Assembly (NCBI GenBank): GCA_043821705.1 | Contig: JBDRCN010000045.1 | Coordinates: forward strand, 22,400-86,399 | DNA length: 64,000 nucleotides | Direction of reading: 5' to 3' | Source of the DNA: Candidatus Omnitrophota bacterium | Lineage (GTDB): Bacteria > Omnitrophota > Gorgyraeia > Gorgyraeales > Gorgyraeaceae | Shown: positions 39,137 to 55,368 of the stretch, piece after piece | Numbering within the stretch: the stretch's first letter is position 1 | How the letters are laid out: the number at the start of each line of letters is the position of its first letter | Program-made: the position numbers and the translations under genes | Notes under the pieces: model-generated | The model's database searches: none | The model's input: the letters and a program-made list of their open reading frames with translations, nothing else | What the model was told of the DNA's origin: nothing

Positions 39137-39955
39137 TTACCAGTCTTTTTCAACATTATATCTAGTCTCACCTATGCGCCTTCTTAGGTCCTTTTGTACA
39201 TCTTCTTCATCATCTTTTAATGCATCTAAGAGTCTCTTAGCATCTTCTTCTGACATCTCATCTTTTTGCTGGCCCTCTTCTTCCTTTTGGTCCTCTTGGC
39301 CTTGTTGTTTTTCTTGGTCTTCTTGAGATCCTTTATCCTGGTCTTTCTTTTCTTCTTCCTTAGACTTGTCATCTTTAGAATCACTTTTTTGTGACTCTTG
39401 TTTTTGCTGCTTCAGTAATTTTTTTATAAGTTCTATATTATATTTAGCATCTTCATCTTCAGGATCAATAGAAAGTGATTCTTCGTAAGAAGCTATTGCT
39501 TCTTCTAACTTCCCCATCCGAAAGTTAGTGTTTCCTATATTATAATATGTCTTTGCCTTAAGTTCATCATTTTTTGAACCTAATGTCTTTTCATACTCTT
39601 TATAAGCATCTTCATGTCTATCGATCTTATGAAGGGCATTACCGATATTATACTGAAGTTCATTGTTCTCTGGATGATCTATCTGAGCATCTCTCCACTC
39701 TGAAAGAGCTTCATCCATATTTTCCTCTTTATAAAGCTCCCTTGCCTTCTTATCCTTAGAAGACAATGATTCCTTCCACCCCCACCCTGCACTGGAAAAA
39801 GAAAATAATAATAAGAAACATAGTAAGACAACGGGTCCTGTCCGCCGATTCACCCCACAAGTGCTCAGGCAAAGCCTTGCGCGCTTGCGGGGGCCCCAAT
39901 CGCCGGCCACCCGTTGTCTTAAAATTCTTTTAATTTTTAATGCAGTGAAATTCAT
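39137..39955 (-). CDS. batC: BatC-like TPR protein with an acidic low-complexity C-terminus
   Basis: TPR repeats (YNIGNALHKIDRHEDAYKEYEKTL; YYNIGNTNFRMGKLEEAIASYEESL) and an E/K/D/Q-rich tail. Confidence 0.6.
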   Translation of the reverse strand: MNFTALKIKRILRQRVAGDWGPRKRARLCLSTCGVNRRTGPVVLLCFLLLFSFSSAGWGWKESLSSKDKKARELYKEENMDEALSEWRDAQIDHPENNELQYNIGNALHKIDRHEDAYKEYEKTLGSKNDELKAKTYYNIGNTNFRMGKLEEAIASYEESLSIDPEDEDAKYNIELIKKLLKQQKQESQKSDSKDDKSKEEEKKDQDKGSQEDQEKQQGQEDQKEEEGQQKDEMSEEDAKRLLDALKDDEEDVQKDLRRRIGETRYNVEKDW

Positions 39956-41013
39956 ACTCTTTTTCTATCTCCTAACAAGGTTTCGGCTATGATCAGAAGA
40001 ATAGCTATTGCTAAAAAGTATTGGAACCTGTCTTCGTATTGTGTAAAGAGCCTGCTAGAAAGTTCCTTTTTCTCCATTCCTTGAATATCATCATATATCT
40101 TGTCTAGTTCAAATTCACTCGGTGTAGCATTATAATATTTACCGCCTGTGATAATAGCTATCCTCTGCAGGGTTTCTTCATCAAGCTTGGATATTATCAC
40201 CTCTCCAGACTTATCCTTTTTATACCCTGATGCATTCCCTTTCTCGTCCATTACAGGAACTAGTTCTCCATCCCTTGTACCTATCCCAATAGTGTATATT
40301 ATTATTCCTTCTTTTTTAGCTAGTCTAGCTGCATCTATAGCCTTAGAGCCATGGTCCTCTCCATCAGTAAGAAGTATCAGCACTTTATGTTTGGTCTCTT
40401 TCTTTATAAATGCTTCTTCTGCTTTTTTTATTGCCTTTCCTATCTCAGTACCTGGCCGCGGGATTATGCCTACGTCTATTATCTTTAAAAATAATTTTGC
40501 TGCCTGGTAATCAAGTGTAAGAGGACACTGGACAAAGCTGTCACCAGCAAAAGTAATGATACCTATCCTATCCCCTTTTAATCTATCTATAAAAGATGTT
40601 AATTCTAATTTTGCCTTTTCTAATCTATTGGGTTTTATATCCTGGGCCTTCATGCTAAGAGATGTATCTATTGCTACTAAGATATCTATACCTTTTCTCC
40701 TGGTCATAGTAAGGCGCGACCCTATCTGCGGCCTTGAGATAGAAATAATGAGAAAAAATACTGCTAAAATAATAAGTGCTGCTTTTAGATAGTCTCTCGT
40801 AAAGTCTTTGGAAAAAGATATCTTTTCCAGGATGCCTTTATCAGCAAAAAACTCCATTGCCTTTCGCTTGTTCCTATAAGCTATGACAAAAAATACCACT
40901 AGTATAGGAATAATTATTAATAGATTTAAAAATACTGGTGAACCCCAATGCATAAGTCGTAATCCGTAATTCGTAATCCGTAATTCGTGATGCGCAATCG
41001 GTTCACGCATCAC
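39952..41013 (-). CDS. batB: BatB-like von Willebrand factor A protein (TM + VWA)
   Basis: VWA MIDAS DTSLSM...LTDGED. The likely true start is MHWGSPVF at about 40952; the track's N-terminal extension runs through the heptamer repeat. Confidence 0.7.
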   Translation of the reverse strand: MMREPIAHHELRITNYGLRLMHWGSPVFLNLLIIIPILVVFFVIAYRNKRKAMEFFADKGILEKISFSKDFTRDYLKAALIILAVFFLIISISRPQIGSRLTMTRRKGIDILVAIDTSLSMKAQDIKPNRLEKAKLELTSFIDRLKGDRIGIITFAGDSFVQCPLTLDYQAAKLFLKIIDVGIIPRPGTEIGKAIKKAEEAFIKKETKHKVLILLTDGEDHGSKAIDAARLAKKEGIIIYTIGIGTRDGELVPVMDEKGNASGYKKDKSGEVIISKLDEETLQRIAIITGGKYYNATPSEFELDKIYDDIQGMEKKELSSRLFTQYEDRFQYFLAIAILLIIAETLLGDRKRV

Positions 41014-41031
41014 GGTTCACGAATCACGATT
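40955..41031. repeat. Tandem heptanucleotide repeat array arranged as an imperfect palindrome (CGTAATY x4 ... RATCACG x4), batA-batB spacer
   Basis: cgtaatc cgtaatt cgtaatc cgtaatt cgtgatg cgcaatc ggttcac gcatcac ggttcac gaatcac. Confidence 0.8.
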
Positions 41032-42021
41032 CTAGGGGAGTTTTCTGAACAATGTGTTCGAAAGAACTACCCCTGTAATAAAAATCATAAAACCTGGGAA
41101 AATAAAAGAAGTAGCTCCTTCATTATAGTTAGCATACTCCTTGGTCTCTATCTTTGTCTTTTCTAGTTCTCCTATAGTCTTATATATCTCCTTTAACCCC
41201 TCTTCATCCTTTGCCCTAAAATATAAGCCGCCTGTCTCTTCTGCAATTTTACTGAGAAGCTCTTCATCTATCTCAGTATCCATCCTCACATATCTTTTCC
41301 CGAATATCGGGTCAGTCACTGGATAAAGCGCTTTTCCTGGCTTACCAGCGCCGATAGTATATATCTTTATACCTAGTGTCTTTGCTAGCTTTGAAGCAGT
41401 CAATGGGTCTATCTTTCCAGCATTATTCACGCCATCAGTCAAAAGTATTATAATCTTGCTCTTTGCTTCTGAATCCCTGAGCCTATTAGTAGCATTTGCA
41501 ATAGCCAGTCCTATGGCAGTACCATCCTCTATCATCCCGATCTCTATCTTATCCAGAAGATCTAAAAGCACATTATAATCCAGTGTAAGAGGGCACTGTG
41601 TGAAACTCTCTTTTGAAAATACTACTAGTCCTAATCTATCATTGCGCCTTGATCCTATAAAATCCTTTAAGACTTCCTTGGCAGCTCCTAATCTATTCTG
41701 CGGCTGAAAATCTTCTGCCTTCATACTGCTAGAAGTGTCTAGTGTTAAGATAATATCAACTCCTTCTGTTATTATCTCTTCTTCTCTCTGGCCAAATTGA
41801 GGTCTCGAAAACGCGATTATAAATATAAATAGTGCTGTCATCCTTAATATGAACGGAAGATGCTTGTATCTTGCTTTAACCCCAGGAGCAATATCCTTAA
41901 CTAATCCTATATCTGAAAACACAATGCTTGCTTTCTTTTTCTTGAGATTTTTCAGATAATCCCACGTAAGCGCTGGGATAATAAGGATAAGTATTAAGAA
42001 TATCGGGTGTAATAATCTCAT
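41032..42021 (-). CDS. batA: BatA-like von Willebrand factor A protein (TM + VWA)
   Basis: DTSSSMKAED...LLTDGVNNAG MIDAS motif, N- and C-terminal TM segments. Confidence 0.7.
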   Translation of the reverse strand: MRLLHPIFLILILIIPALTWDYLKNLKKKKASIVFSDIGLVKDIAPGVKARYKHLPFILRMTALFIFIIAFSRPQFGQREEEIITEGVDIILTLDTSSSMKAEDFQPQNRLGAAKEVLKDFIGSRRNDRLGLVVFSKESFTQCPLTLDYNVLLDLLDKIEIGMIEDGTAIGLAIANATNRLRDSEAKSKIIILLTDGVNNAGKIDPLTASKLAKTLGIKIYTIGAGKPGKALYPVTDPIFGKRYVRMDTEIDEELLSKIAEETGGLYFRAKDEEGLKEIYKTIGELEKTKIETKEYANYNEGATSFIFPGFMIFITGVVLSNTLFRKLP

Positions 42022-42560
42022 ATTTCGTGATTCGTGATCCGTGATTCGTGATTCGACAACTGATCAAAATTTATGGTAATATCAATTATATCAATAGCTC
42101 TATTGTAGACCTCACTTATTTCCTTCTCACCCGGATTATATTTTGCAAATTTTACAAGGTCGCATTCTTCTAAAAAATCTTTTATCTTAGTAGATACTTC
42201 GAGCTTTATCCCCTTTTCCCTTATATCTTGATAGACTTCCCAAGTAGTCCTATCAAGAGTAGATATAGTAAGTTTCCCTTCGATATATTTACGTATGATG
42301 TCTGATAACCTTATGTAATAAACTTTTACCATACGTTTTCTAGGAAGGTCTTCTCTTAAAAGAGTTGCTAATTCTTCCCTTGCGATCTCTTCTGGGGATC
42401 TAACAGGAACTTGTGGGAGGTTTTCTAAATTTTGTTTATTCTTAAAATATAAAAATATACCTATAGCTATGGCTATTAAAAGAAATAATATTATAACTGG
42501 CCAGATATTAAATCCAGTGTTTATCTCTATGATGTCTTTTAAAGGGCGTATATCTTCCAT
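42018..42560 (-). CDS. Small single-TM protein (DUF4381-like position in the bat operon)
   Basis: One TM (IWPVIILFLLIAIAIGIFLYF). The C-terminal ...SNHESRITNHEI is encoded by the heptamer repeat array. Confidence 0.5.
   Translation of the reverse strand: MEDIRPLKDIIEINTGFNIWPVIILFLLIAIAIGIFLYFKNKQNLENLPQVPVRSPEEIAREELATLLREDLPRKRMVKVYYIRLSDIIRKYIEGKLTISTLDRTTWEVYQDIREKGIKLEVSTKIKDFLEECDLVKFAKYNPGEKEISEVYNRAIDIIDITINFDQLSNHESRITNHEI
42024..42055. repeat. Tandem heptanucleotide repeat (TTCGTGA x4.5) at the batA start / upstream ORF end
   Basis: ttcgtga ttcgtga tccgtga ttcgtga ttcg. Confidence 0.8.
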
Positions 42561-42609
42561 ATTTAGATACTTACTTCTAATACCTTCTTAGTGCTTTTTA
42601 ACCCACTCT

Positions 42610-43542
42610 TTATCTAAATCGCTTAGCTCGCTTTTTAAAAAAAAGTATGAGCGGCTCTATATAAGATGTGCCAGTGGACAGCTCCACTACATCAAGGTTC
42701 ATGGACCTAAAGAGTTTTTTTCTGTCTATTGTTATGCTCTCTTGTCTTTTTTTAAGCTCTTTCCTTAAGATCTCATCCCCAGTATCTATAGATAACATCT
42801 CTCCTGTCTCAGCATCCTCAAATTCTACCAGGCCTATGTCCGGAAGATCCTTTTCTCTCGCATCAGAGATAGATATACCTATAATATCGTGCCTTTTATT
42901 TAAGATCCTCAGGAGCTTTTCATATCCTTTATCCATAAAATCAGATATTAAAAATACTATCGAGCGTTTTTTTAATATCCTTGCCAGATACTCAAGGGCA
43001 TTCTCTATACTAGTCCCTTTTTTTCTGGGTTTATAATATAGGACCTCTCTTATGACCCTAAGCACATGCATCCTGCCTTTTTTAGGAGGAATGAACTTTT
43101 CAACCTCGTCAGTAAAAAGCAAAAGCCCTACCTTATCATTGTTCTTTATTGCGCTAAATGCCAAGATAGAAGCAATCTCAGCCATGATCTCAGATTTTAA
43201 CTTACTCCTGGTGCCAAACTTCCCAGACCCGCTCATATCTGCCATGATGAGGACTGTAAGCTCTCTTTCTTCTATGAACTTTTTTACATATGGATGGCCT
43301 GTGCGAGCAGTGACATTCCAGTCTATAGAACGTATATCATCTCCTGGCACATATTCCCGTACTTCATGGAATTCCATGCCTCTTCCTTTAAACACAGACT
43401 CGTACTGACCTCCGAAAACATCAGTTACAAGTTTCCCAGTCTGTATCTCTATACGTTTTATTTTTTTTAGGATCTCTTTTGGGATCATAAAAACCGTGAA
43501 CCGTGATGCGTGAACCGTGATTCGCGATCTGTTACGAATCAC
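42610..43542 (-). CDS. DUF58-family protein (MoxR partner)
   Basis: Operon position directly after the MoxR ATPase. The likely true start is MIPKEILKK at about 43487. Confidence 0.6.
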   Translation of the reverse strand: MIRNRSRITVHASRFTVFMIPKEILKKIKRIEIQTGKLVTDVFGGQYESVFKGRGMEFHEVREYVPGDDIRSIDWNVTARTGHPYVKKFIEERELTVLIMADMSGSGKFGTRSKLKSEIMAEIASILAFSAIKNNDKVGLLLFTDEVEKFIPPKKGRMHVLRVIREVLYYKPRKKGTSIENALEYLARILKKRSIVFLISDFMDKGYEKLLRILNKRHDIIGISISDAREKDLPDIGLVEFEDAETGEMLSIDTGDEILRKELKKRQESITIDRKKLFRSMNLDVVELSTGTSYIEPLILFFKKRAKRFR

Positions 43543-43566
43543 GAATTACGAATTACGCATTACGAA
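43493..43566. repeat. Tandem heptanucleotide repeat array in two opposed blocks (ACCGTGA x5 / TACGAAT x5), DUF58-moxR spacer
   Basis: accgtga accgtga tgcgtga accgtga ttcgcga tctgt tacgaat cacgaat tacgaat tacgcat tacgaat. Confidence 0.8.
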
Positions 43567-44604
43567 TTATGGGACTTCTATTTCATCGAATATCTTCTTT
43601 ACAATGATCTCGCTGGTCACTTCTTCTGCTTCTGCTTCGTAAGTAGTGAGCACTCTATGACGGAGTACGTCCATGCCTATTATCTTCACATCTTCTGGTA
43701 TAACATAACCTCTGCCTCTTATAAATGCATGCGCCTTGCTAGCAACATTAAGGTATATAGTTGCTCTGGGAGAAGCGCCATAAGCAATAAAATCCTTAAC
43801 ATCTATCTTATATTCCTCAGGGCAGCGCGTAGCATAGACTATGTTGACTATGTAATCTTTTATCTTATCATCCATATAGACATTATTTACAATATCCCTT
43901 GCCTCGAGTATCTCTTCAGGAGATATGACAGGATTTACTTTCTCTACTTTTTTGCCTGCCATCCTTTCCATTATAAGGCGTTCCTCTCTTTTATCAGGAT
44001 AATCTATCTTTATCTTTAGCATAAAGCGATCTACCTGCGCTTCTGGAAGAGGGTAAGTGCCTTCCTGTTCTATTGGATTCTGAGTAGCAAGGACTAAAAA
44101 AGGTTCCTCTAATAGGAATGTATTTTCACCTATTGTGACCTGTCTCTCCTGCATTGCTTCCAGAAGCGCGCTCTGCACCTTGGCAGGAGCTCTATTTATC
44201 TCATCAGCAAGTATGAGATTTGAAAAAATAGGGCCTTTTTTTGTAGTGAATTGCCCGTCTTTAGGGTTGTACACTAGCGTTCCTAGAAGATCTGCTGGTA
44301 AGAGATCTGGTGTAAACTGTATCCTCTGGAATTTAGTCTTTATACAGCTTGAAAGTGTCTTTACAGCTAGGGTCTTGGCGAGGCCTGGCACACCTTCTAT
44401 CAGGATATGACCATCTGCTAAAAGCGCCACTAAAAGCCTTTCAGTAAGATATTTCTGCCCGACTATCACCTTTGAAAGTTCATTGTTCAATTGTTGGATG
44501 ATAATGCTTTTTTCTTTTACTTTCTCATTGATAGCTTTAATGTCCTGACCGTATCTAGATTCTGACATACATACCTCCTTATATGTTTTTAAGTAGATTC
44601 CCAT
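43567..44604 (-). CDS. moxR: MoxR-family AAA+ ATPase
   Basis: Walker A GVPGLAKT, LILADEINRAPAKVQSALLEAMQE, typical MoxR length. Confidence 0.8.
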   Translation of the reverse strand: MGIYLKTYKEVCMSESRYGQDIKAINEKVKEKSIIIQQLNNELSKVIVGQKYLTERLLVALLADGHILIEGVPGLAKTLAVKTLSSCIKTKFQRIQFTPDLLPADLLGTLVYNPKDGQFTTKKGPIFSNLILADEINRAPAKVQSALLEAMQERQVTIGENTFLLEEPFLVLATQNPIEQEGTYPLPEAQVDRFMLKIKIDYPDKREERLIMERMAGKKVEKVNPVISPEEILEARDIVNNVYMDDKIKDYIVNIVYATRCPEEYKIDVKDFIAYGASPRATIYLNVASKAHAFIRGRGYVIPEDVKIIGMDVLRHRVLTTYEAEAEEVTSEIIVKKIFDEIEVP

Positions 44605-44608
44605 TACC

Positions 44609-44645
44609 CGTTATCCATTCCCCGTCTGCCCTCCGTAGCCAGCCT
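44609..44645. repeat. Heptanucleotide repeats (CCRTTAY x3-4) upstream of moxR
   Basis: ccattac ccgttat ccattcc ccgtctg. Confidence 0.55.
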
Positions 44646-44675
44646 TTTGAACTGCAATTCGTAAAGGCGTAGGAG
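44617..44675 (-). promoter_or_regulatory. Copy B of the conserved roughly 57-nt element, in the htpX-moxR spacer
   Basis: ACCCTCCTACGCCTTTACGAATTGCAGTTCAAAAGGCTGGCTACGGAGGGCAGACGG. Internal pairings CCCTCC/GGAGGG and GCCTTT/AAAGGC are possible. Confidence 0.45.
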
Positions 44676-44677
44676 GG

Positions 44678-45523
44678 TTACCCGTTTTTAAGTCTTTTAA
44701 CCCGTTCCTGAATAGGTGGATGTGTGCTAAAGAGATTTGCCAGCATATTCCCACTAAATGGGTTTACTATAAACAGGTGCCTAGTAGCATCGTTCGCATG
44801 CAATGGATAAGCCTTAGCGCCTTTTTCTAATTTCAATAGAGCGCTGGCCAAGCCATCGCTTGAGTGAGCGATCATAGCTCCTCTTTTATCAGCTGCATAT
44901 TCTCTTGAGCGGGATATTGCTAACTGTATCAATAGCGCTGCTATCGGAGCTAATATGATCATAAATAAATATCCCAGCGCATTTCCACTATCTCGGTTTG
45001 ACCTGGATCTCCCGCCAAATCCTCCTAATATCATGGCCCATCTTGCCCAGCTGGCAAGCATGGTAATAGCTCCTGCGATAGTCGCAGTCACAGTCATTAT
45101 AAGAGTGTCTCTGTTTTTTATATGAGAGAGTTCGTGCGCAATGACTCCTTTTAACTCATCTCTATTTAATAGATTCAATATACCTTGCATGACACATACT
45201 GCTGAGTGTTTAGGATTCCTTCCAGTGGCAAATGCATTAGGAGAAGCCTGCGGCGCAATATAGATCTTTGGCATAGGGATGTTCGCTTCTGTCGCAAGTT
45301 CATTTACCATATTATATAATTCAGGCACTTCATTTGGCTCTATTTCCTTCGCGCCATACATCTTTAAGACGATCTTATCGCTAAACCAATATGCGCCCAC
45401 ATTCATAATAATAGCGAACATGAATGCCATGCTCGCTCCTCCTTGTCCGCCAAAATATCCACCTACCCAGACAAAAAGCATTGTCAGTATTACTAATAAA
45501 AACGTGGTCTTTATATAATTCAT
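44678..45523 (-). CDS. htpX: HtpX-like M48 zinc metalloprotease (membrane)
   Basis: HELSHIKNRD HExxH motif, 4 TM segments, conserved C-terminus. Confidence 0.8.
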   Translation of the reverse strand: MNYIKTTFLLVILTMLFVWVGGYFGGQGGASMAFMFAIIMNVGAYWFSDKIVLKMYGAKEIEPNEVPELYNMVNELATEANIPMPKIYIAPQASPNAFATGRNPKHSAVCVMQGILNLLNRDELKGVIAHELSHIKNRDTLIMTVTATIAGAITMLASWARWAMILGGFGGRSRSNRDSGNALGYLFMIILAPIAALLIQLAISRSREYAADKRGAMIAHSSDGLASALLKLEKGAKAYPLHANDATRHLFIVNPFSGNMLANLFSTHPPIQERVKRLKNG

Positions 45524-45527
45524 AATC

Positions 45528-46130
45528 TCACCTCTTCAGATATTTTTCCAGCGCACTCCAGGTCTGTGACCCGACCTTGCCATCCACCTTAAGGCCTTTT
45601 GTCTTCTGAAATTCCATGACAGCTTGTTTTGTGCGCTGTCCCATCTTACCGTCTATTGTCCCTGGGTCAAATCCTGCATTCTTCAGGGCAGTCTGTATAT
45701 CCTTGGTAGTAGGTTGGAATTCGGAAGTCTTATCTTCACTATAAGCGCTCCTCACTTCTACATCATATTCTTTCTTCATGCTTCTTTCTTCATTTGTCCG
45801 CCTTATATCTTCTATCTGTGTAAGAGTAAGCTTATTCACATATCCTGTGGATTTTATCCCGATGGATTCCTGAAATTCTTTAATAGCATCTCTGGTCTTC
45901 TGTCCCATCCTACCGTCTTTATTCCCAGTATCATAGCCAAAACCAGCCAAGACCACCTGTATCTCCTCAACCACTGGATTCACTATATCAGTAGTACCGA
46001 TAAGTTTTTCTTCCTCTTTCTGATACACCACAGATTTTGGCACTATATTGCAGCCAGAGAATGTTAATACCACTATTAAAAGTATAAAAACCTTAAAATT
46101 CTTATTCATGACGCCTCCTATTTCCAGCAT
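45528..46130 (-). CDS. Lipoprotein with two peptidoglycan-binding (PG_binding_1-like) repeats
   Basis: Lipobox LTFSGC; two repeats DGxMGQxTxxAxxEFQ. Confidence 0.55.
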   Translation of the reverse strand: MLEIGGVMNKNFKVFILLIVVLTFSGCNIVPKSVVYQKEEEKLIGTTDIVNPVVEEIQVVLAGFGYDTGNKDGRMGQKTRDAIKEFQESIGIKSTGYVNKLTLTQIEDIRRTNEERSMKKEYDVEVRSAYSEDKTSEFQPTTKDIQTALKNAGFDPGTIDGKMGQRTKQAVMEFQKTKGLKVDGKVGSQTWSALEKYLKR

Positions 46131-49100: not shown

Positions 49101-49177
49101 AGAGGCCCCTCTAATGTATCCACTGCCTCTTTCTGTTCAACATTCAACTCGTTGTAGAACTTATCAAAACTAGACAC
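46118..49177 (-). CDS. UvrD/PcrA-family helicase fused to a C-terminal PD-(D/E)XK nuclease with a 4-Cys cluster (AddA/AddB-like helicase-nuclease)
   Basis: Walker A AGPGTGKTQ; the C-terminus has VVDYKTG and Cys residues at CYKLLY and NKCRWCDFDHICW. Confidence 0.7.
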   Translation of the reverse strand: MSSFDKFYNELNVEQKEAVDTLEGPLLVLAGPGTGKTQLLSVRASNIIRQKKSLPENILILTYTNAAAKAMKERLSKIIGMKGYDVQVGTFHSFANSIILDSEESANYLQDRIQITDIEKIRAIEHILDHTKGLSDIRPFRAPYTYVREIEARIGELKREGISPEEFLLYCKALKPDGVYVEERHIPKIIALAVVYEQYEKIKEGNNKEMFDARGRYDFDDMILLATTSLNNEDTLKKRYQEQFKFIMVDEFQDTNGAQLKFLFSLLKDRSPNICCVGDDDQSIYRFQGASIGNFKELKNKFPRLKTVSLKNNYRSTKEIIDLTQHLISEVPVGERTGEKKLIPIKDFKKKRIEFYEYTTEEEEMIFLVERIKELKDEIESSKSLTKEEKKSPYNNIAVLVRKRSLILKLIDKFLQVGIPYATDGKEDIRGEFRVRQMLDLLEFASLDPENYEDRGRILYNILVSDYLLIPHEDILSFINKVNKKKRQKLAVTLVSEFFDDKDIAPSLAKARELLKKILTEAPFKPVHTVLMQYVKDSGLFKYILEKYDKKDIIRLRELRGLCSFINMVKETDISNPGLSLRDLIEDLRTRNEHDLPVRGNLVTMTQDGVRIITAHSSKGEEFHSVIIPFCLQDKSWPLRPRPNLIPLPPELLKTVERVDSKEKIKTLRYYDETRLFYVATSRAKSSIIFSSSPKENQISSSYLYHLKLPVKERSVKEEDILLGSLHMTEKLDPFIGTKDILMDLVADMTLNPTSLNNYLSCRRKFLYDNVLMLPGSKKQSLIFGNSVHSGLEHVYRSYMKTNRFPDFQFFKDRFLEALKFQGPEKAIELRSIEQFDNLKTFFNRISKDPVMPIGLENRMPINIEGIIFTGKYDKLELEDEENGLVRVVDYKTGQPKKHARGIYKCTSLEDESCDGYLRQLVCYKLLYERDKMREEKHLSVSHGVLVFVEPSKDEVRSFGIKKGEPVEFKVELNEDMVSEMVMIIKNAWRGIQELHFEKLPERDMNKCRWCDFDHICWK

Positions 49178-49265
49178 GAAGGCTGTTCTCCTATTATTGA
49201 ATAGTATTTTATAACCTATATAGCCTATATGTCAAGTATAGAGAAATATCTCTTATCTAACGTGT

Positions 49266-49277
49266 TCAACGCGTTGA
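49266..49277. promoter_or_regulatory. Perfect 12-bp palindrome TCAACGCGTTGA in the divergent helicase / pilZ intergenic region
   Basis: Flanked by the AACGTGTT / AACGCGTT half-site repeat. Confidence 0.35.
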
Positions 49278-49323
49278 TTTTACATAAAACATAATGTATA
49301 CTTAGACAGATAAGGAAGACTAT

Positions 49324-49701
49324 ATGACAGAAAGAAGATATTTTAAGAGACATAAACTAAACTTTATTGTCTATTTTAAGGTCGACAGGCCGCTAGACAT
49401 AAAGATGTTGATAGGTGATAAACAAAAAAGCGCTAATATGGTAGACATCAGCGAGATAGGTATGGCTATCTTCAGTATCGATAAGATACCTGCCGGAACT
49501 ACGCTTTCCATCACCTTTACTATAATGGATATGTATGCAAAAAAACAAGAGGATAGGATCAAGACTATCAAGGTGCTGGGAAATATCCAAAATGTTGCAG
49601 CCGTAGGAAAAGGCTATAGGCTAGGGATACTGTTCAAATATATGGGCGAAAAGGATAAAGACCTATTAAAAAATTTTATAGAACTCGCTTCTAGAAAGTA
49701 A
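49324..49701 (+). CDS. PilZ-domain protein
   Basis: RRYFKRHKL (RxxxR) and DISEIGMAI (DxSxxG). Confidence 0.55.
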   Translation: MTERRYFKRHKLNFIVYFKVDRPLDIKMLIGDKQKSANMVDISEIGMAIFSIDKIPAGTTLSITFTIMDMYAKKQEDRIKTIKVLGNIQNVAAVGKGYRLGILFKYMGEKDKDLLKNFIELASRK

Positions 49702-49720
49702 CTAGGTATAATTTTAATAT

Positions 49721-51277
49721 ATGGCTAAAAAACGTGATGCATGGAAATCTAGAGTAGGTATCATAATGGCTGTTGCAGGAAGCGCAGTTGGGCTAGGGAA
49801 TTTCCTGCGTTTTCCAGTGCAGGCTGCACAGAATGGCGGCGGAGCGTTCATGATACCTTATTTTATCTCCCTCCTTCTTTTGGGGATACCTCTCATGTGG
49901 ATAGAATGGACTGTTGGAAGGTTCGGCGGAGGGTTCGGACACGGCACTGCGCCTGGCATGTTCCATACTATGTGGAAAAAGAACAGATTTATAAAATATT
50001 TCGGGGTCATAGGGATATTCGGGCCGCTAGTTATTTTTATTTACTATAATTATATCGCTTCATGGACCCTTGCGTATGCATTTTTCCAAGCTACAGGTAA
50101 ATATGGGCCTGATGTAAACCAGGAAGGGATGATGTCTCTTCTCAGGGGATTCCAGGGAATAGAGAAAAACAGTTTCTTCTCCAGCCTTCAATATGCATAC
50201 TTATTTTTTATTATAACATTTGCAGTAAATATCATCATAATCTATAAGGGCATCTCTGGTGGGATTGAAAAACTTTGTAAGATCGCCATGCCAACGCTTT
50301 TTATATTTGGGATAATAATCGCTATAAGAGTATTTATGCTTGGTACTCCTGACCCAGCAAAGCCAGATTGGAACATCATCAATGGCCTTGGGTTTTTATG
50401 GAACCCTGATTTTAAAGCACTCTGCAATGCCAAGGTATGGTTAGCAGCTGCAGGCCAGATATTCTTTACCCTCAGTGTCGGCATAGGCGTGATATTGACC
50501 TATGCTAGTTATCTTAAAAAGACGGATGACGTCGCGCTTTCTGGGCTCACAGCAGCGTCTGCAAATGAATTCGCAGAGATCATCTTAGGGTCCTCCATCA
50601 TAATCCCAGCAGCATTTGTCTTTTTTGGCCCGAATATGATACAAGATATAGCAGCAGGCGGGGCATTTAATCTGGGGTTCGTGACAATGCCTTTAATATT
50701 CCAAAAGATCGCGCTGAGTGCATTTTTTGGCTGTCTATGGTTTGGGCTTTTATTCTTGGCTGGTATCACTTCAAGCGTGTCACTGGCCCAGCCCACGATC
50801 GCATTCCTGGAGGATGAATTCAATATCTCTAAGAAAAAAGCAGTCCTAATCTTTGGCATAGTATCTTTTATACTCTGCCAGCCAGCAATATTTTTCTTAA
50901 AGAACGGGGTTGTAGATGAACTTGATTTCTGGGGAGGTACATTCTGCCTAGTGCTATTTGCCACAGTCGAGACTATTTTGTTCGGCTGGATATTCGGTAT
51001 TGAAAAAGCATGGGAAGAGATGCATCGTGGGTCTGACCTCAGGATACCAAAAATATATAAATTCATCATCAAATATATTACGCCTCTATTTTTGGTTTCT
51101 ATATTGGGTTTTTGGTTCTATCAGCAGGGTATCCCTACTATTTTAATGGAAGGTGTAAGCGAAGTTAATAAACCATACGTACTCGGGACCAGGATAATGC
51201 TGGTAGTCATGTTTATAACTCTCTCGATCCTAGTCAAGGTAGCATGGAGTAAACGTAAAGTAAGGGCTGAGAAATGA
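49721..51277 (+). CDS. Sodium:solute symporter of the SNF (neurotransmitter:sodium symporter) family
   Basis: N-terminus SRVGIIMAVAGSAVGLGNFLRFP and 11-12 TM segments. Confidence 0.8.
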   Translation: MAKKRDAWKSRVGIIMAVAGSAVGLGNFLRFPVQAAQNGGGAFMIPYFISLLLLGIPLMWIEWTVGRFGGGFGHGTAPGMFHTMWKKNRFIKYFGVIGIFGPLVIFIYYNYIASWTLAYAFFQATGKYGPDVNQEGMMSLLRGFQGIEKNSFFSSLQYAYLFFIITFAVNIIIIYKGISGGIEKLCKIAMPTLFIFGIIIAIRVFMLGTPDPAKPDWNIINGLGFLWNPDFKALCNAKVWLAAAGQIFFTLSVGIGVILTYASYLKKTDDVALSGLTAASANEFAEIILGSSIIIPAAFVFFGPNMIQDIAAGGAFNLGFVTMPLIFQKIALSAFFGCLWFGLLFLAGITSSVSLAQPTIAFLEDEFNISKKKAVLIFGIVSFILCQPAIFFLKNGVVDELDFWGGTFCLVLFATVETILFGWIFGIEKAWEEMHRGSDLRIPKIYKFIIKYITPLFLVSILGFWFYQQGIPTILMEGVSEVNKPYVLGTRIMLVVMFITLSILVKVAWSKRKVRAEK

Positions 51278-51370
51278 ATATATTAGGGTGGTTGATCTTT
51301 ATAATATCCTGGATAAGCATCATATCCTTAACGATATTCTGCTTCAGAAGGATACTCTCCAAGAAATAAA

Positions 51371-51556
51371 CTATTCGAAAGTTATTGCATCGACAGGACA
51401 TTCATCCTTTGCCTGTTTGCAGGTCTCTTCATTCTCAGGTGAAACTGTGCTACCTATTACTATAGCCTTATCTTCTTTCATCTGGAAGACTTCAGGACAT
51501 GTATTTACACATAAACCGCATCCAACACAAAGCTCTTCGTTCATTATTGCCTTCAT
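51371..51556 (-). CDS. Small 4Fe-4S ferredoxin
   Basis: CVGCGLCVNTCP ... C...CP. Confidence 0.7.
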   Translation of the reverse strand: MKAIMNEELCVGCGLCVNTCPEVFQMKEDKAIVIGSTVSPENEETCKQAKDECPVDAITFE

Positions 51557-51578
51557 TTTTTCCTCCTTAAATGAGCAC

Positions 51579-51611
51579 TCTAGTTATGAAAATTAAAAAT
51601 TTTCATAACTA
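51579..51611. promoter_or_regulatory. Perfect 33-nt palindrome/hairpin (15-bp arms) in the ferredoxin 5' leader, just upstream of the AAGGAGG RBS
   Basis: ctagttatgaaaatt aaa aattttcataactag. Confidence 0.5.
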
Positions 51612-51639
51612 GATCTTCTTTGTTCTTCTTCTTTGAACG

Positions 51640-51672
51640 TGCGAATATAGCTTTCTACCCTATAATTGTCAA
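51640..51672 (-). promoter_or_regulatory. Sigma70-like promoter (TTGACA-17-TATATT) upstream of the ferredoxin gene
   Basis: The minus strand reads ttgacaattatagggtagaaagctatatt. Confidence 0.5.
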
Positions 51673-52796
51673 CCAAATTTTAATACATACTCCCTGAACA
51701 TCCTGTCTACGATGCTAAAACTTCCATCAGGGCCCCTTCTTATAAGGCCTTTTTCATTCAAACGATATAGGAAATTCTTTATATTAGCTATAGGGAATTT
51801 CTTTGCATGTTTACCTACTATCATCATATTCCTAAAATCTTTTATGGAAAGCCTTCCTCCTTCTTCAGCAAGTATCTTTAAAAGATATCTTTCCCTGTCA
51901 CTAGCCCTGGCCAAGAGATTACTGAAATAATCTCTGCCCAATTCCCTTAGGGTATTATTAAGCGCAGCATCCCACGTAGCCTCTCCTACGATCCCCTCTA
52001 TCTGGCTATCATAAAGATGGCTTGAAAGAAGCTGTACTTCGTATGGATGGCCATAGGTATAATCATATATCTTCATCTTTATAAAATCATCGAACTGAAC
52101 GCCTGTATCACTAAGCGTGGTATTCACTGTATTTAATACATCGTCCTTTTTTAAAAACTCTACAGTGAGCCTTTTTCTAAAAAACCTGCCTACTGGATCA
52201 TGTTTGTCTATAAATGATGACCAGCCTCCTGGGGTAGACGAAAGGATGAACATAAAATGTGAATTCTCTAAGACATCGTCCCTGCTGAGCACTGCCCTTA
52301 ATATATCTATGGTATTAGAGATGGTCATTAGATTCTGCAGGTCATCCAAAAGTACAACTACTAACTTAGTATCAAGCTTTTTCCATGCCTCGATCAAGAA
52401 TTTGGCAAATTGAGTCTGGGCCTGCGACAGAGAAGACCTCTTGGAAAATGAACTTAGAAGTGCCTCTGAGTCAGGTTTGAGCTGAGGAAAGCTCAGGATC
52501 ATCTCTTCTGCTATCAAATAAAGCGCATCTAATGGCTTATCCTTTTTTGTAAAATTTGAAATCGCACAAAAACACGTTGGATTGCCATTCTCCTGCACCA
52601 TCCTCCTGAACTGTTTTAAAAGAGATGTCTTGCCTATCCCCCACTCTCCTAAAACTACAAGGTGAGTTGGCCTGATAAAACTCTCCTCCAGGTTTGACCT
52701 AAACATAGAGAGCTCTTCTTCTCTTCCGCCAAAGAACTTTGGCTCCCGGCCTGACTGTGGTGTAAAAGGATTAGGTTTTATCATATTATTTACCAA
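51669..52796 (-). CDS. AAA+/P-loop ATPase (Arch_ATPase-like); uses a TTG start
   Basis: Walker A GEWGIGKTSLL and Walker B VVVLLDDLQ. Confidence 0.55.
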   Translation of the reverse strand: MVNNMIKPNPFTPQSGREPKFFGGREEELSMFRSNLEESFIRPTHLVVLGEWGIGKTSLLKQFRRMVQENGNPTCFCAISNFTKKDKPLDALYLIAEEMILSFPQLKPDSEALLSSFSKRSSLSQAQTQFAKFLIEAWKKLDTKLVVVLLDDLQNLMTISNTIDILRAVLSRDDVLENSHFMFILSSTPGGWSSFIDKHDPVGRFFRKRLTVEFLKKDDVLNTVNTTLSDTGVQFDDFIKMKIYDYTYGHPYEVQLLSSHLYDSQIEGIVGEATWDAALNNTLRELGRDYFSNLLARASDRERYLLKILAEEGGRLSIKDFRNMMIVGKHAKKFPIANIKNFLYRLNEKGLIRRGPDGSFSIVDRMFREYVLKFG

Positions 52797-53142
52797 GCAT
52801 CATGTAGATAGATATCATAAAAAGCAATACTCCAAAACATCTTTTAAGGATCAGGCTTGGCATCATATGAGCAAATACTGCTCCTATATAGCCTCCTAAA
52901 AAGAAACCCAGGCTGATAAAGAACGCTACCTTTAGATTCAGGTTGCCTGACTGATAGTACCTGATCGCTGCAAAGATCCCTATTGGCAGTATCAGCGCTC
53001 CCAGCGCTGTACCTTGCGCATAATGCTGGGAAAACTTGAATAAGTATATCAGACAAGGCACTACTACCACAGCTCCTCCAATGCCGAAGAACCCGCTCGC
53101 TACCCCTGCTAATACACCTATTAATATACTCACTATCATCAT
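52786..53142 (-). CDS. Half-size TSUP/TauE-family membrane protein (4 TM)
   Basis: GxGGG motif FGIGGAVVVVP and TM topology. At 118 aa it is about half the usual length. Confidence 0.5.
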   Translation of the reverse strand: MMIVSILIGVLAGVASGFFGIGGAVVVVPCLIYLFKFSQHYAQGTALGALILPIGIFAAIRYYQSGNLNLKVAFFISLGFFLGGYIGAVFAHMMPSLILKRCFGVLLFMISIYMMLGK

Positions 53143-53182
53143 ATTAGTTTACATAAGAAATCTTGTATGTTAGATTATAGCT

Positions 53183-54643
53183 ATGATTATAAAAAGAGAT
53201 CCTGACATAATCAAGTGTTATTTTGAAGATGAGTCCGGGCTGTTAGGGGGTAATGCCAGCGAGGTCATATCTCCAGAGGAAGAAAAAGAAGTAGTTGAGG
53301 TATTAAAAGACCTTGGTTCTAAGAAAACTCCTTCTACTATTTCTGGAGGAGGCACAGGCGTGACTGGCGCAAGAGTACCATTCGGCGGCACGATCCTAGC
53401 AACAGATTCCCTCAATAAGATCCTGGATATCAATAAAAAAGACCTGACTTTAACAGCACAGCCTGGTGCAAGAATATCTGAGATACAAGAAGAAGTCTCA
53501 AAACTTGGGCTTATTTATCCACCTGACCCTACTGAAAAAAGTGCTTTTTTAGGCGGGACTGTCTCGACCAATGCCTCTGGCGCAAGAGGATTTAAACACG
53601 GCTCCACCAGAGATTATATTAAAAGATTAAAGATAGTATTATCGAATGGCGAGATATTAGATATAAAACGCGGGAAATATATCACAAAAAACAGAGACCC
53701 TTTTATCTTGAAACTAAGGGATAAAGAAATAAAGATCCCTATACCTAGGTACAAGATGCCTGATGTAAAAAATGCAAGCGGCTATTATATCGAAAATAAC
53801 ATGGACCTCATAGATATATTTATAGGTTCTGAAGGCACTCTTGGATTTATAACAGAGGTGGCTATAGCGCTCAAGAAAGGGCCTGAGGAAATAATGAGTT
53901 TCTTCAGCTTTTTTTCAAAGGAAAAAGATGCGCTCAGCTTTATAGAAGACGCTAAAAAGTATAATGCTCTTACATTCGAATATATGGATAAGAATTCTCT
54001 AGAACTCCTGCGCGGAAAATTCCCTACTATACCAGAAAATGCTGCGAGCATGGTCTATTTCGAAGAGGATTATGAAAAAAAAGACGAGGAGCGACTAAGT
54101 GAGCAATGGATAAGATTATTAGAAGAACATAATAGCCTAAGTGAAAAGACATTATTTGCTGATACAGAAAAAGAACGGAATAAGTTAAGGGAAATACGCC
54201 ATGCTCTTCCTGAGACAATAAACGAGATCGTAAAAAAGAATAAACTGCCCAAGGTCGGGACAGATATTGCAGTGCCTGGGAATAGGTTCAGCGAGATGTA
54301 TTCATTTTACAAAGAAAGGCTTTCTTCTTCAAAGATAGACCATTTGATATTTGGGCACATTGGTGAAAGCCACATGCATGTGAACATGCTTCCAAAAAAT
54401 GAAGAAGAATATATAAAAAGCCGCTCTGTCTATATGGATTTTGTGAAAAAAGCTGTGTCTTTAGGCGGGACAGTCTCTGCAGAACATGGTATCGGTAAAC
54501 TAAAACATGCGTTTTTAGAAGCGATGTATGGAAAAGATGCTATCATGGAGATGGTAAGACTTAAAAAGTCCCTAGATCCAGCATGCATCCTAGGGCTGGA
54601 CAATATATTCTCCAAGGAGCTACTGATTAAAAATCGTGCATAA
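53183..54643 (+). CDS. FAD-linked oxidase (GlcD / D-lactate dehydrogenase-like)
   Basis: FAD-binding region TISGGGTGVTGARVP and a C-terminal oxidase domain, about 486 aa. Confidence 0.65.
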   Translation: MIIKRDPDIIKCYFEDESGLLGGNASEVISPEEEKEVVEVLKDLGSKKTPSTISGGGTGVTGARVPFGGTILATDSLNKILDINKKDLTLTAQPGARISEIQEEVSKLGLIYPPDPTEKSAFLGGTVSTNASGARGFKHGSTRDYIKRLKIVLSNGEILDIKRGKYITKNRDPFILKLRDKEIKIPIPRYKMPDVKNASGYYIENNMDLIDIFIGSEGTLGFITEVAIALKKGPEEIMSFFSFFSKEKDALSFIEDAKKYNALTFEYMDKNSLELLRGKFPTIPENAASMVYFEEDYEKKDEERLSEQWIRLLEEHNSLSEKTLFADTEKERNKLREIRHALPETINEIVKKNKLPKVGTDIAVPGNRFSEMYSFYKERLSSSKIDHLIFGHIGESHMHVNMLPKNEEEYIKSRSVYMDFVKKAVSLGGTVSAEHGIGKLKHAFLEAMYGKDAIMEMVRLKKSLDPACILGLDNIFSKELLIKNRA

Positions 54644-55325
54644 TACCGATCGCTAGTTCTTCTCCATCAATAAGGGTGGCTTCTATATTTATGCGTGTTG
54701 TATCATTTATCTGATAATCCATCCCAGTGACTAATCCGTAATATTTTTCAGAATGTATTCTCTTTCTGTCCTTCTCATCCTCCCATTTGATGAAGTCAAG
54801 CGAACCGAATCTACCCCCCATATATGGCACGAACCTACCTATATCCTTGGAGATAAGAAAAGTACCGTTCCATTCATCTATTATTGCTTCGTGCTTAATG
54901 CTGTCTTGGTCCTTGGGATCCGGATGTACGCTTATATGCTGAAATCCTAAGATACTTTTTATTCCCCATTCTTCTATTGCAAGGCCTTTTATCCTAAATC
55001 CATACGCTCCTGCAAAATTAGTGTCATAGCTTATATCATTATTACTGTCTGTCCTATTCCACTCTACATCCCCCACGCCTGCCTTCCCATCAAGAGAAAG
55101 CCAAGGAAATACTGCATAGCTAAGAGCAAAGAAATACCTATTGCCTTCTGTACCTCCAGTATCATTATCCAAGTTCCTGTCTACCAGGATGTTCGCTTCT
55201 AAGCCGCATGTCCATTTCTCATCTTCTGGTATGTGAGTTCCATAAGAAGAAGTAGCATAGCTAGGCTTACAAAAAGAAATGAGTATTATTAAGATAGCAA
55301 ATGCATATGTAGTCCTTTTTAACAT
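54627..55325 (-). CDS. Outer-membrane beta-barrel protein
   Basis: Signal peptide, alternating strands and a C-terminal aromatic residue (...IGIMHDF). Confidence 0.5.
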   Translation of the reverse strand: MLKRTTYAFAILIILISFCKPSYATSSYGTHIPEDEKWTCGLEANILVDRNLDNDTGGTEGNRYFFALSYAVFPWLSLDGKAGVGDVEWNRTDSNNDISYDTNFAGAYGFRIKGLAIEEWGIKSILGFQHISVHPDPKDQDSIKHEAIIDEWNGTFLISKDIGRFVPYMGGRFGSLDFIKWEDEKDRKRIHSEKYYGLVTGMDYQINDTTRINIEATLIDGEELAIGIMHDF

Positions 55326-55333
55326 GTTCTCCC

Positions 55334-55368
55334 CCGTTACCCGTAATCCGTTACCCGTTATCCGATAT
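55334..55368. repeat. Tandem heptanucleotide repeat (CCGTWAY x5) immediately upstream of the OMP gene start
   Basis: ccgttac ccgtaat ccgttac ccgttat ccgatat. On the minus strand this reads GGTAACG GATTACG GGTAACG and runs into GGGGGAG before ATG. Confidence 0.75.

Follow-up and report, generated by a model that had tools for sequence, protein, structure and literature searches.

Tandem heptanucleotide arrays in the gene junctions of a moxR-bat operon from Candidatus Omnitrophota

REP and REPIN elements are extragenic imperfect palindromes of approximately 70-110 nt, in many cases located inside operons, in the gaps from one gene to the next, and found in either orientation. Tandem heptanucleotides form a separate group of repeats. 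The heptanucleotide is the most over-represented length of long SSRs (LSSRs) in many prokaryotes, and polymerase slippage was proposed in the same work (Mrazek, Guo and Shah 2007, as cited in PMC4679880 and PMC4692102). STRR heptamers were described in the cyanobacteria Calothrix PCC 7601 and Nostoc (cited in PMC4692102), and GGGAATC and GGGGAYT repeats in Xanthomonas and Nostoc (PMC4692102). The repeats of both types vary in length and sequence between close relatives (PMC4692102). In marine Beggiatoaceae, two to six TAACTGA direct repeats are located a few nucleotides before start codons, often replacing the Shine-Dalgarno (SD) sequence (MacGregor 2015, PMC4679880); this unit is common to distant phyla with no evident transfer mechanism (PMC4679880). 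Finally, arrays of 7-10 contiguous WATCACW heptads, direct as well as inverted, are bound by the protein omega (ParB-pSM) of plasmid pSM19035 (PMC9499535).

Our literature search found no earlier description of heptamer LSSRs in Omnitrophota. Here we analyse such arrays in a 64 kb stretch of DNA (the window) from an uncultured bacterium of Candidatus Omnitrophota. The repeat class is already known from many bacteria. We consider it probable that the arrays are heptanucleotide long SSRs, STRR-like in their working, that arose by slippage and local copying and are tolerated in gene junctions, their effects on expression being by-products.

Heptamer arrays in the operon junctions

The host operon (37232..45523, minus strand) consists of genes encoding an M48 peptidase (44678-45523), MoxR (43567-44568), a DUF58 protein (42610-43488), a 180-aa TM protein (42018-42560), BatA (41032-42021), BatB (39952-40953), BatC/TPR (39137-39955) and BatD (37232-39100, start uncertain). 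The gene assignments are based on Pfam, and synteny is conserved in eight Omnitrophota loci.

The first-pass annotation listed five sites with tandem heptamers, and at four of them (sites 1, 2, 3 and 5) the period-7 arrays are solid. TRF called periods 7 and 14 at 40953-41032, 42024-42055, 43492-43569 and 55334-55368, and at exactly these sites the triplet CGT or ACG recurs at 7-nt intervals, four to five times in a row. The lag-7 identity is 0.72-0.92 (P<=0.002 compared to random windows), and in no block of the window does the lag-14 identity fall below the lag-7 identity. The heptamers are indeed commoner than in shuffled sequence, with 11 matches to CGTRAWN x3 in the window and none in 100 dinucleotide shuffles. 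At least three unrelated unit types (CGTGAWN/CGTAATN, GGGTAAC-type and GACA-type) occur together within 16 kb of the window.

Every array is located in a stop-to-start spacer; at sites 2 and 5 the upstream ORF takes its final codons from the margin of the array, and from no more than the margin. They fill or create junctions of the M48-moxR-DUF58-180aa-batABCD operon on the minus strand, and one other junction. The claim that each array lies just upstream of a minus-strand gene start is true of batB (ATG at 40953), batA (42021), DUF58 (43488) and the 232-aa OMP-like ORF (55325), where the distance to the ATG is 2-10 nt. It does not extend to moxR: the true start of this gene is ATG 44568, behind AAGGAGG, and site 4 is approximately 40 nt from it.

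Site 4 (44609..44645, minus strand) is a weak array in the spacer between the M48 and moxR genes (44569-44677). It reads GGGGAAT GGATAAC GGGTAAT GGGAATC on the mRNA strand, a unit type related to that of site 5. It is marginal (lag-7 identity 0.43, P=0.06) and, at best, a decayed array. Site 5 (55334..55368, minus strand) is a direct array. It extends over the final codons of an S11 peptidase gene, the TAA stop of this gene (55353-55351) and the 25 nt that separate it from the OMP-like ORF, and is followed by an SD sequence, GGGGGAG. On the plus strand it reads CCGTTAC CCGTAAT CCGTTAC CCGTTAT; on the mRNA strand the units are of the ACGGGTA/ACGGATT type. Its identity is 0.79 at lag 7 and 0.86 at lag 14, and it is unstructured on both strands. 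A sixth array (39101..39136, minus strand), missing from the initial list, occupies the batC/batD spacer. It reads CAAGTTG CAAGTCA CAGGACA CATGACA CAAGTTG on the mRNA strand (lag-7 identity 0.69, P=0.0014), a different, GACA-type unit like that of arrays in the Omnitrophota loci L004 and L207. The arrays thus consist of head-to-tail 7-nt units, with site 4 the single exception at 0.43; they are longer than expected by chance and mostly non-coding, as is typical of LSSRs. Altogether, arrays or array remnants are present in six of the approximately eight junctions of the operon, and such a concentration in one operon counts against the LSSR reading.

Site 2 (42022..42078, minus strand) consists of 57 nt inserted at the 3' end of the gene for the 180-aa protein, with a direct array at 42024-42055 reading AATCACG AATCACG GATCACG AATCACG on the mRNA strand and ending 2 nt before the batA start codon. 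The insertion encodes an extra tail, TINFDQLSNHESRITNHEI, and retains the ATGA stop/start overlap. The arrays had been said to extend the predicted N-termini of batB, DUF58 and the 180-aa protein. False N-terminal extensions derived from array sequence are present in batB (GTG 41013) and DUF58 (GTG 43542), and also in moxR (ATG 44604), whereas the 180-aa ORF is extended at its C-terminus, by 19 residues relative to its 161-162-aa orthologs, which end 18-19 residues earlier.

One could imagine that the arrays are a slipped-strand device for phase variation of the bat operon. With one unit more or fewer at site 2, the 180-aa protein would be made separately with ATGA coupling, be fused in frame to BatA, or be read through out of frame. 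Phase variation classically acts on SSRs. Site 2, the only site whose placement arguably suits such switching, is contained in the 3' end of an ORF and has no stop codon in any of the three sense frames, and a 7-nt change would shift the frame in which this ORF meets batA. However, four or five units are few for efficient switching, and the arrays are mostly intergenic, where 7-nt changes have no frame effect. Moreover, the Bat and MoxR genes are housekeeping-like rather than surface contingency genes, and the same arrays are found beside all kinds of genes in other phyla. We consider phase variation very unlikely.

Palindromic element and junction hairpins

Sites 1 and 3 are the two long imperfect palindromes of opposed heptamer blocks that had been recognised in the first reading of the sequence. 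Site 1 (40954..41031) is a 78-nt spacer, entirely array, between the batA stop codon (TAG, 41034-41032) and the batB start codon. On the plus strand, four to five copies of CGTAATY are followed by a centre and the reverse complement of four copies of CGTGAWN. Site 3 (43489..43566) is also a 78-nt spacer, between the moxR stop codon (TAA, 43569-43567), which is in register with the last unit, and the DUF58 start codon. Its plus strand has four to five copies of CGTGAWN, a centre, and the reverse complement of five copies of CGTAATN. The two hairpins are inverted copies of one element, located 2.5 kb apart. The minus strand of site 1 and the plus strand of site 3 are identical in 64 of 78 positions (82%), and both contain the 23-mer CGTGAACCGTGATGCGTGAACCG, a 14-mer of which is absent from 4.9 Mb of other loci. 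From this it is evident that copying of the 78-nt element took place. The appearance of a 78-nt composite in inverted orientation 2.5 kb away is not accounted for by simple slippage, and this too counts against the LSSR reading.

One possibility is that the palindromes are mobile or copy-prone elements, REP/REPIN- or MITE-like, with arms that are heptameric by chance. Their spread would depend on a Y1 (RAYT/IS200-type) transposase or on hairpins between which template switching occurs. It is consistent with the equal length, the similarity and the inverted arrangement of the two copies, with the 14-mer core absent from those other loci, and with the stem mismatches, which in each copy are all G-U on one particular strand. 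A Y1_Tnp gene was also found near the orthologous operon in the relative L206. On the other hand, there are just two copies in the window, with neither a conserved terminal motif nor a target-site duplication, and the element exactly fills the stop-to-start gap. The proteins of the window (64 kb) include no Y1 transposase. Furthermore, the flanks of 272 arrays taken from other genomes and from viral contigs are not conserved, and the direct arrays (sites 2 and 5) and those with unrelated units would be left unexplained. The inverted copies of a 78-nt hairpin are the one point that favours the REP-like family suggested initially, and the reading as a whole is improbable.

The RNA fold of site 1 has a free energy of -37.0 kcal/mol on the minus (mRNA-sense) strand (z -6.95), with six G-U pairs, and -24.1 kcal/mol on the plus strand. 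For site 3 the minus (sense) strand yields -27.8 kcal/mol (z -3.73), and the hairpin is followed by U5; the plus (antisense) strand yields -37.9 kcal/mol. Site 2, conversely, is less structured than its shuffles (-2.9 compared to a mean of -7.8 kcal/mol).

The orthologous junctions of other Omnitrophota are diverse. The moxR/DUF58 junction is overlapping or at most 17 nt long in six of eight orthologous loci. The batA/batB junction is 8 nt long in the close relatives L002 and L003, with no array spacer. Unrelated inserts are found in this junction elsewhere: hairpin arrays of GGGACAA (L004), ATACTGT x3.7 (L001), ACGTTAC x3.5 (L208), and non-heptamer hairpins in L206 and L207. In total, structured batA/batB inserts occur in four of nine loci, or in seven of nine if unstructured heptamer arrays are counted. 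The databases contain no strain-level relative: no relative exceeds 75% amino acid identity, and there is no second contig with the same protein. Compared with these orthologous junctions, the array spacers are lineage-specific gains. The recurrence of structured inserts between batA and batB could reflect selection rather than tolerance.

An alternative is that the arrays are selected intercistronic elements of the mRNA. The hairpins of sites 1 and 3 would stabilise the mRNA segments upstream of them, serve in processing or attenuation, or maintain translational coupling, with the stop and the start codon at the foot of one stem, and the unstructured direct arrays of sites 2 and 5 would be SD-independent landing pads for ribosomes. 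Indeed, the arrays are internal to the operon and adjacent to start codons, the SD sequence is absent before batB, batA and DUF58, and the sense-strand hairpins are strong, that of site 3 having its U-tract. The direct arrays fold worse than shuffles. A hairpin immediately follows the batA stop in L004, L206 and L207, although the sequences are unrelated, and the TAACTGA repeats of Beggiatoaceae, proposed as landing pads, are a precedent (PMC4679880). However, the element occurs in both orientations relative to the mRNA, and the best fold of site 3 is antisense. The close relatives L002 and L003 have no spacer at all. No intrinsic terminators were called at the arrays, and the statistics for an excess of strongly folding spacers in bat junctions are not convincing. 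Across genomes, the orientation of arrays relative to flanking genes is not biased (20:14 upstream of starts, 28:23 downstream of stops). We regard such a selected role as unlikely. Rfam had no match at the gathering score anywhere in the window.

Period and unit in other genomes and viruses

The arrays had been labelled genome-specific, which is incorrect. CGTRAWN x4 was found in more than 120 loci, from approximately 110 genomes and approximately 20 phylum-level lineages, and also in more than 120 viral contigs. In the viral contigs, the CGTRAWN core was found in at least 120 loci at period 7, 29 loci at period 8, and 72 loci at period 6. An arbitrary control unit, GTCRAWN, is as common in viral contigs as CGTRAWN (at least 119 loci). 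Around the CGTRAWN x4 loci there are 131 further period-7 arrays, which comprise many unrelated units, and no more than six arrays for any other period from 4 to 12. These counts show that what matters is the period rather than the unit. In other genomes, 107 of 145 blocks are located outside long ORFs. In 66 longer arrays from elsewhere the identity is 0.913, 0.895, 0.876 and 0.860 at lags 7, 14, 21 and 28, respectively, and this decay matches the prediction of local duplication. The decay and the 14-nt steps in the window are indirect signatures of slippage.

These data bear on the suggestion that the arrays bind an abundant protein. They would then be operators or centromeres bound cooperatively by a ribbon-helix-helix (RHH) or similar protein, one dimer per heptad. 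Site 2 has four AATCACG-type units, half of sites 1 and 3 has the ATCAC/TTCAC core, and each array has at least four contiguous heptads, direct and inverted, as required for omega (PMC9499535). However, the sites are operon-internal and not at promoters; the promoter scan was unspecific (38 found, 27 expected) and singled out none at the arrays. A single binder is difficult to reconcile with the unrelated units that co-occur here, with dozens of them in other genomes, and with an equally abundant control unit. Besides, no candidate binder gene, RHH or ParA, is present among the proteins of the window. This explanation is highly improbable.

Two novel readings are doubtful, if somewhat less so. 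In the first, the period-7 arrays would not be passive products of slippage but the footprint of a dedicated process with a 7-nt step; in the second, the palindromes would be a new copy-prone hairpin bridging stop and start codons. The process could be phylogenetically widespread and involve a polymerase, a primase, a repair intermediate or a protein that templates expansion. The hairpin may insert into overlapping gene junctions with translational coupling preserved.

Under the LSSR reading, which we prefer, the arrays would originate and grow by slipped-strand mispairing, in steps of one unit (7 nt) and two units (14 nt), and local copying would have placed the 78-nt palindromic element at sites 1 and 3 in inverted orientation. 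In this gene-dense genome they would persist only where no coding sequence is broken, that is, in stop-to-start junctions of co-directional genes, which in relatives tend to be tight or overlapping. Co-transcribed with the operon, the palindromic arrays would form hairpins of approximately 30 bp, so that the upstream stop and the downstream start meet at the base of one stem, and two direct arrays would be unstructured leaders abutting start codons, that of batA without an SD sequence. Gene ends have been remodelled by the 19-aa C-terminal tail, a donated stop codon and spurious upstream start codons. Such effects on expression would be tolerated by-products and not a selected function. Simple slippage does not explain the preference for 7 nt, which again counts against this reading.

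As regards annotation, ORF predictions in MAG-derived genomes, those of Omnitrophota and many others, are inflated where heptamer arrays supply false N-terminal extensions, added C-terminal tails and donated stop codons, and gene callers and operon models should mask such arrays. Through the arrays, junctions in which genes overlap and are translationally coupled become structured spacers. One more phylum joins the unexplained predominance of 7-nt repeats in prokaryotes, and the element duplicated in inverted orientation is a clear case of a composite palindrome built of heptamers.

Comparison with known repeat systems

Like REP/REPIN elements, sites 1 and 3 are imperfect palindromes forming hairpins; sites 2, 4, 5 and 39101-39136 are direct instead. 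Unlike these elements, they have no conserved GTAG-type head, the arms are internally tandem, and the window contains two copies only and no RAYT gene.

The omega heptads are similar in having contiguous 7-bp units with the ATCAC core in at least four copies, both direct and inverted. Site 2, (A/G)ATCACG x4, matches the core of WATCACW (PMC9499535), but position 7 is G and not W. Omega arrays overlap promoters beside the gene of their RHH binder, whereas the arrays described here are intercistronic and combine unrelated units, and the window has no RHH gene.

The TAACTGA repeats of Beggiatoaceae likewise place heptamers a few nucleotides before starts and have a unit common to distant phyla. 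In that group one unit dominates, in the "forward" orientation; here there are several units, half of the blocks are inverted, and there is no orientation bias across genomes.

The STRR and Xanthomonas/Nostoc repeats (PMC4692102) resemble the present arrays in being intergenic, also within operons (pecE-pecF), and in having inverted pairs that can form stem-loops. The units of the present arrays (CGTGAWN/CGTAATN, GGGTAAC, GACA-type) and the phylum differ. Since these units are not G-rich, they have no G-quadruplex potential. Assignment to STRR sensu stricto was rejected, as the host is Candidatus Omnitrophota and not a heterocystous cyanobacterium, and the units are different; the arrays are STRR-like only in their working.

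Two features are unlike LSSRs in general: the present arrays lie almost exclusively in operon-internal stop-to-start junctions, and two of them are one duplicated 78-nt palindromic element. In other respects they resemble the heptanucleotide LSSRs of prokaryotes, as these are summarised in the sources cited above: tandem 7-nt units extend beyond chance length, they are mostly intergenic, several loci occur per genome, the phylogenetic distribution is scattered, and period 7 dominates over periods 4-12 in the present census.

Heptamer arrays at gene junctions

The GC content of the window is 35.9%, and CGT occurs just 322 times in 64 kb. Runs of four to five CGT (ACG on the other strand) in 7-nt phase were observed where Tandem Repeats Finder places arrays of periods 7 and 14 (40953-41032, 42024-42055, 43492-43569 and 55334-55368). 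Three tandem copies of CGTRAWN are matched 11 times in the window and never in 100 dinucleotide-preserving shuffles. The arrays are real period-7 SSRs. Of the five sites listed in the first-pass annotation, four are solid (site 1, 40954-41031; site 2, 42024-42055; site 3, 43489-43566; site 5, 55334-55368), with lag-7 identity, the self-match at a 7-nt shift, of 0.72-0.92 (P<=0.002 against random windows). Site 4 (44609-44645) is marginal (0.43, P=0.06 against random windows). One array was missed: the batC|batD spacer at 39101-39136 has lag-7 identity 0.69 (P=0.0014) and a different, GACA-type unit.

That the arrays cluster at 41-55 kb has in part a trivial reason: positions 1-30606 (minus strand) are a single giant gene, whose uninterrupted frame extends over at least 10,202 codons and runs off the window start. 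Hence intergenic repeats are lacking from the first half of the window. HATPase_c and methyltransferase domains are present in 2000 residues at the upstream end of this frame (24607-30606). At 31406-36223 (minus strand) there is a 1605-aa ORF where orthologous loci have a ribonucleotide reductase gene. The reductase of the related locus L001 has 1601 aa with two intein + LAGLIDADG insertions, and those of L004, L206 and L207 are intein-free (752-766 aa). Therefore, judging by its size and position, the window copy is probably an intein-bearing reductase. A GC-rich, structured stretch at ~63020-63140, between a radical-SAM gene and an acyl-carrier-like ORF, contains the 28-nt perfect palindrome TAGCTCCGGGTTCTAGAACCCGGAGCTA and has no Rfam match at gathering score.

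An operon on the minus strand, recognised from Pfam and synteny, comprises the genes for M48 peptidase, MoxR, DUF58, a 180-aa membrane protein, BatA, BatB, BatC (TPR) and BatD. The arrays occupy or create stop-to-start junctions and change ORF ends. Site 1 is the whole 78-nt gap from the batA stop (41034-41032) to the batB ATG (40953), and site 3 is the whole 78-nt gap from the moxR stop (43569-43567) to the DUF58 ATG (43488). Site 5 covers the last codons and stop of an S11 peptidase gene and the 25 nt that separate this gene from a 232-aa OMP-like ORF. Site 2 lies within the 3' end of the 180-aa ORF, its last base 2 nt from the batA ATG (42021). Artificial N-terminal extension of ORFs by the arrays had been proposed for three genes. 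It holds for batB (333 aa, lengthened to 353 on the ORF track) and DUF58 (292 aa, lengthened to 310), and extends to moxR, whose track start (44604) was placed in site 4, the true start being ATG 44568 after AAGGAGG. The 180-aa ORF, on the other hand, is lengthened C-terminally: the orthologous proteins, of 161-162 residues, are 18-19 residues shorter at that end. Its additional tail, TINFDQLSNHESRITNHEI, comes from a 57-nt insertion that contains the site 2 array and has kept, at its end, the ancestral ATGA overlap of stop and start. Between the site 3 hairpin and the DUF58 AUG the mRNA strand reads UUUUU (43489-43493, minus strand), an arrangement that resembles a terminator or attenuator and was not called by the consensus scan.

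A duplicated palindrome and the junctions of related operons

In the window the arrays are built from three or more kinds of unit: CGTGAWN/CGTAATN in sites 1-3, GGGTAAC/GGATTAC-type in sites 4 and 5, and GACA-type at 39101-39136. Units within blocks alternate, e.g. CGTAATC/CGTAATT and CGTGAAC/CGTGATG, and in every block lag-14 identity equals or exceeds lag-7 identity. Therefore the last expansions were two-unit steps. A general 14-nt higher-order unit was rejected, as this pattern is seen in all window blocks but is absent from arrays elsewhere.

Sites 1 and 3 have the structure (CGTGAWN)4-5, centre, (NATTACG)5, in agreement with the earlier description of two imperfect palindromes of opposed blocks. 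Since the arms differ by G/A, G-U wobbles form on one strand and A-C mismatches on the other. The best fold is that of the minus (mRNA-sense) strand at site 1 (-37.0 vs -24.1 kcal/mol) and of the plus (antisense) strand at site 3 (-37.9 vs -27.8 kcal/mol). Aligned by their best-folding strands, these 78-nt sequences are identical at 64 of 78 positions, compared to just 55 in the opposite alignment. They share the 23-mer CGTGAACCGTGATGCGTGAACCG, whose 14-mer core was not found in 4.9 Mb of other fetched loci. Therefore the hairpins are inverted copies of one element, rather than independent arrays. Such copying, an occasional event, may involve template switching or gene conversion between palindromes. 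A REPIN-like mobile element is a less likely explanation; Pfam analysis of the proteins of the 64-kb window revealed no Y1 transposase gene.

The main rival possibility is that the arrays are selected intercistronic RNA elements. The G-U asymmetry was rejected as evidence of RNA-level selection, as the favoured strand is the sense one at site 1 and the antisense one at site 3, and both derive from one ancestor. Sites 2 and 5, which are direct arrays, form weaker structures than their shuffled counterparts. Rfam gave no hit at gathering score anywhere in the window, the terminator scan made no call at any array, and the promoter scan gave nothing tied to the arrays. Selection for RNA elements seems unlikely to us, and we consider it rather probable that any effects of the arrays on expression are tolerated by-products. 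A palindromic insert would bring the stop codon of the upstream gene and the start codon of the downstream gene together at the foot of a single stem, which may explain why such inserts are tolerated in formerly translationally coupled junctions. Where the unit is not self-complementary, a direct array would form an unstructured leader.

In eight Omnitrophota loci (BatA identity 68-75%) the gene order is kept and the spacers are not. The window BatA is 100% identical to a protein from a Candidatus Omnitrophota MAG; its next relatives are 75% identical to it, and its 90% cluster has one member. Exact-protein look-ups with BatA and the radical-SAM protein yielded no strain variants. The moxR and DUF58 genes overlap or are at most 17 nt apart in six loci, and are separated by structured spacers of 94-101 nt in L004 and L205. 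The batA|batB spacer has 8 nt in L002 and L003 and 36 nt, without notable features, in L205. In L004 it is a 97-nt hairpin in which GGGACAA heptamers are opposed, in L206 and L207 a non-heptamer hairpin, and in L001 (ATACTGT, 3.7 copies) and L208 (ACGTTAC, 3.5 copies) an array. As the junctions of relatives differ and are mostly tight or overlapping, the inserts are lineage-specific gains. Strongly folding same-strand spacers (z<-3; 7 of 45) are mainly bat junctions. However, this contrast is not significant, and the spacers come from loci centred on the bat operon; thus we do not claim that structured spacers are specific to it.

L001 has the GGGTAAC/GGGTAAT unit of sites 4 and 5 at its batD|TPR junction (14817-14842); thus Omnitrophota genomes share unit types at different junctions. 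In L004 (Ca. Gorgyraea atricola), GGGACAA-type arrays lie within the called batC and batD coding regions (12550-12716 and 13305-13335), and therefore heptamer arrays can be read as 7-aa protein repeats. In L206 the orthologous bat operon is followed, at a distance of ~8 kb, by a Y1_Tnp (IS200/RAYT-type) gene (19054-19644).

Period, unit and probable origin of the arrays

Approximately one match to four tandem copies of CGTRAWN is expected by chance in 596 Gb, an estimate for uniform base composition. The scan yielded at least 120 loci from ~110 genomes; hence the arrays are not genome-specific, contrary to what had been thought. Among the matches listed, the genomes include roughly 29 of Chloroflexota, 21 of Bacteroidota, 19 of Acidobacteriota, 10 of Cyanobacteria, 8 of Desulfobacterota, 6 of Verrucomicrobiota, one other of Omnitrophota, and others of Firmicutes, CPR, Nitrospirota, Planctomycetota, Vulcanimicrobiota, Poribacteria and Proteobacteria; some are cultured isolates. 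In another Omnitrophota MAG (L119, 55.6% GC), CGTATCT-, CGTGAWT- and AACCAGN-type arrays are adjacent within ~150 nt (~1240-1390, minus-strand numbering).

Prokaryotic and viral DNA is enriched in period-7 arrays rather than in any particular unit. The matched loci (841 kb) contain 131 more period-7 arrays, built from dozens of unrelated units, that fall outside the search pattern; each of the remaining periods between 4 and 12 has at most six. A second set, 802 kb of loci with the bat operon, was selected by protein and not by repeat (a BatA metagenome scan, mostly 50-57% relatives); it has 21 arrays of period 7, 15 of period 6 and at most four for the rest. In viral contigs, the same 6-nt core occurs at 7-nt spacing in at least 120 loci, at 8 nt in 29 and at 6 nt in 72. 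The arbitrary permuted unit GTCRAWN likewise has at least 119 viral loci, and a special role for CGTRAWN was therefore rejected. Arrays of both units are abundant in IMG/VR contigs (L209-L328 and L430-L548), giant-virus MAGs included.

Across the genome matches, arrays show no preferred orientation relative to flanking genes, with genes in foreign loci called by simple ORF heuristics. Solo arrays at most 60 nt upstream of a start are CGT-sense in 20 cases and ACG-sense in 14; downstream of stops the ratio is 28:23. Beyond the decaying repeat, nothing is conserved in the flanks of 272 arrays. An omega-type protein-binding array, comparable to the WATCACW heptads (PMC9499535), is less likely; ribbon-helix-helix and ParA genes were not found by Pfam in the window.

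In 66 imperfect arrays of at least six units, identity is 0.913, 0.895, 0.876 and 0.860 at lags 7, 14, 21 and 28, the monotonic fall predicted by local duplication. The arrays probably arise and grow through slipped-strand mispairing, in steps of 7 and 14 nt, and would survive where coding stays undisrupted. According to summaries in PMC4679880 and PMC4692102, slippage was offered by Mrazek et al. (2007) for heptamer over-representation. Phase variation of the bat operon by the same slippage, suggested in the first-pass annotation, is a less likely reading.

Relation to known heptanucleotide repeats

Our literature search found no report of heptamer arrays for Omnitrophota. The heptanucleotide repeat class itself is already known, although poorly understood, and only two details here are unusual, the remodelled gene ends and the duplication of the 78-nt palindromic heptamer element. 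The features of the window arrays match this class, the long SSRs, whose members include the cyanobacterial STRR. Inverted pairs and operon-internal location have been described for the Xanthomonas GGGAATC and Nostoc GGGGAYT repeats (PMC4692102). The TAACTGA repeats of Beggiatoaceae, also present in Cyanobacteria and Bacteroidetes, lie just 5' of start codons (PMC4679880).
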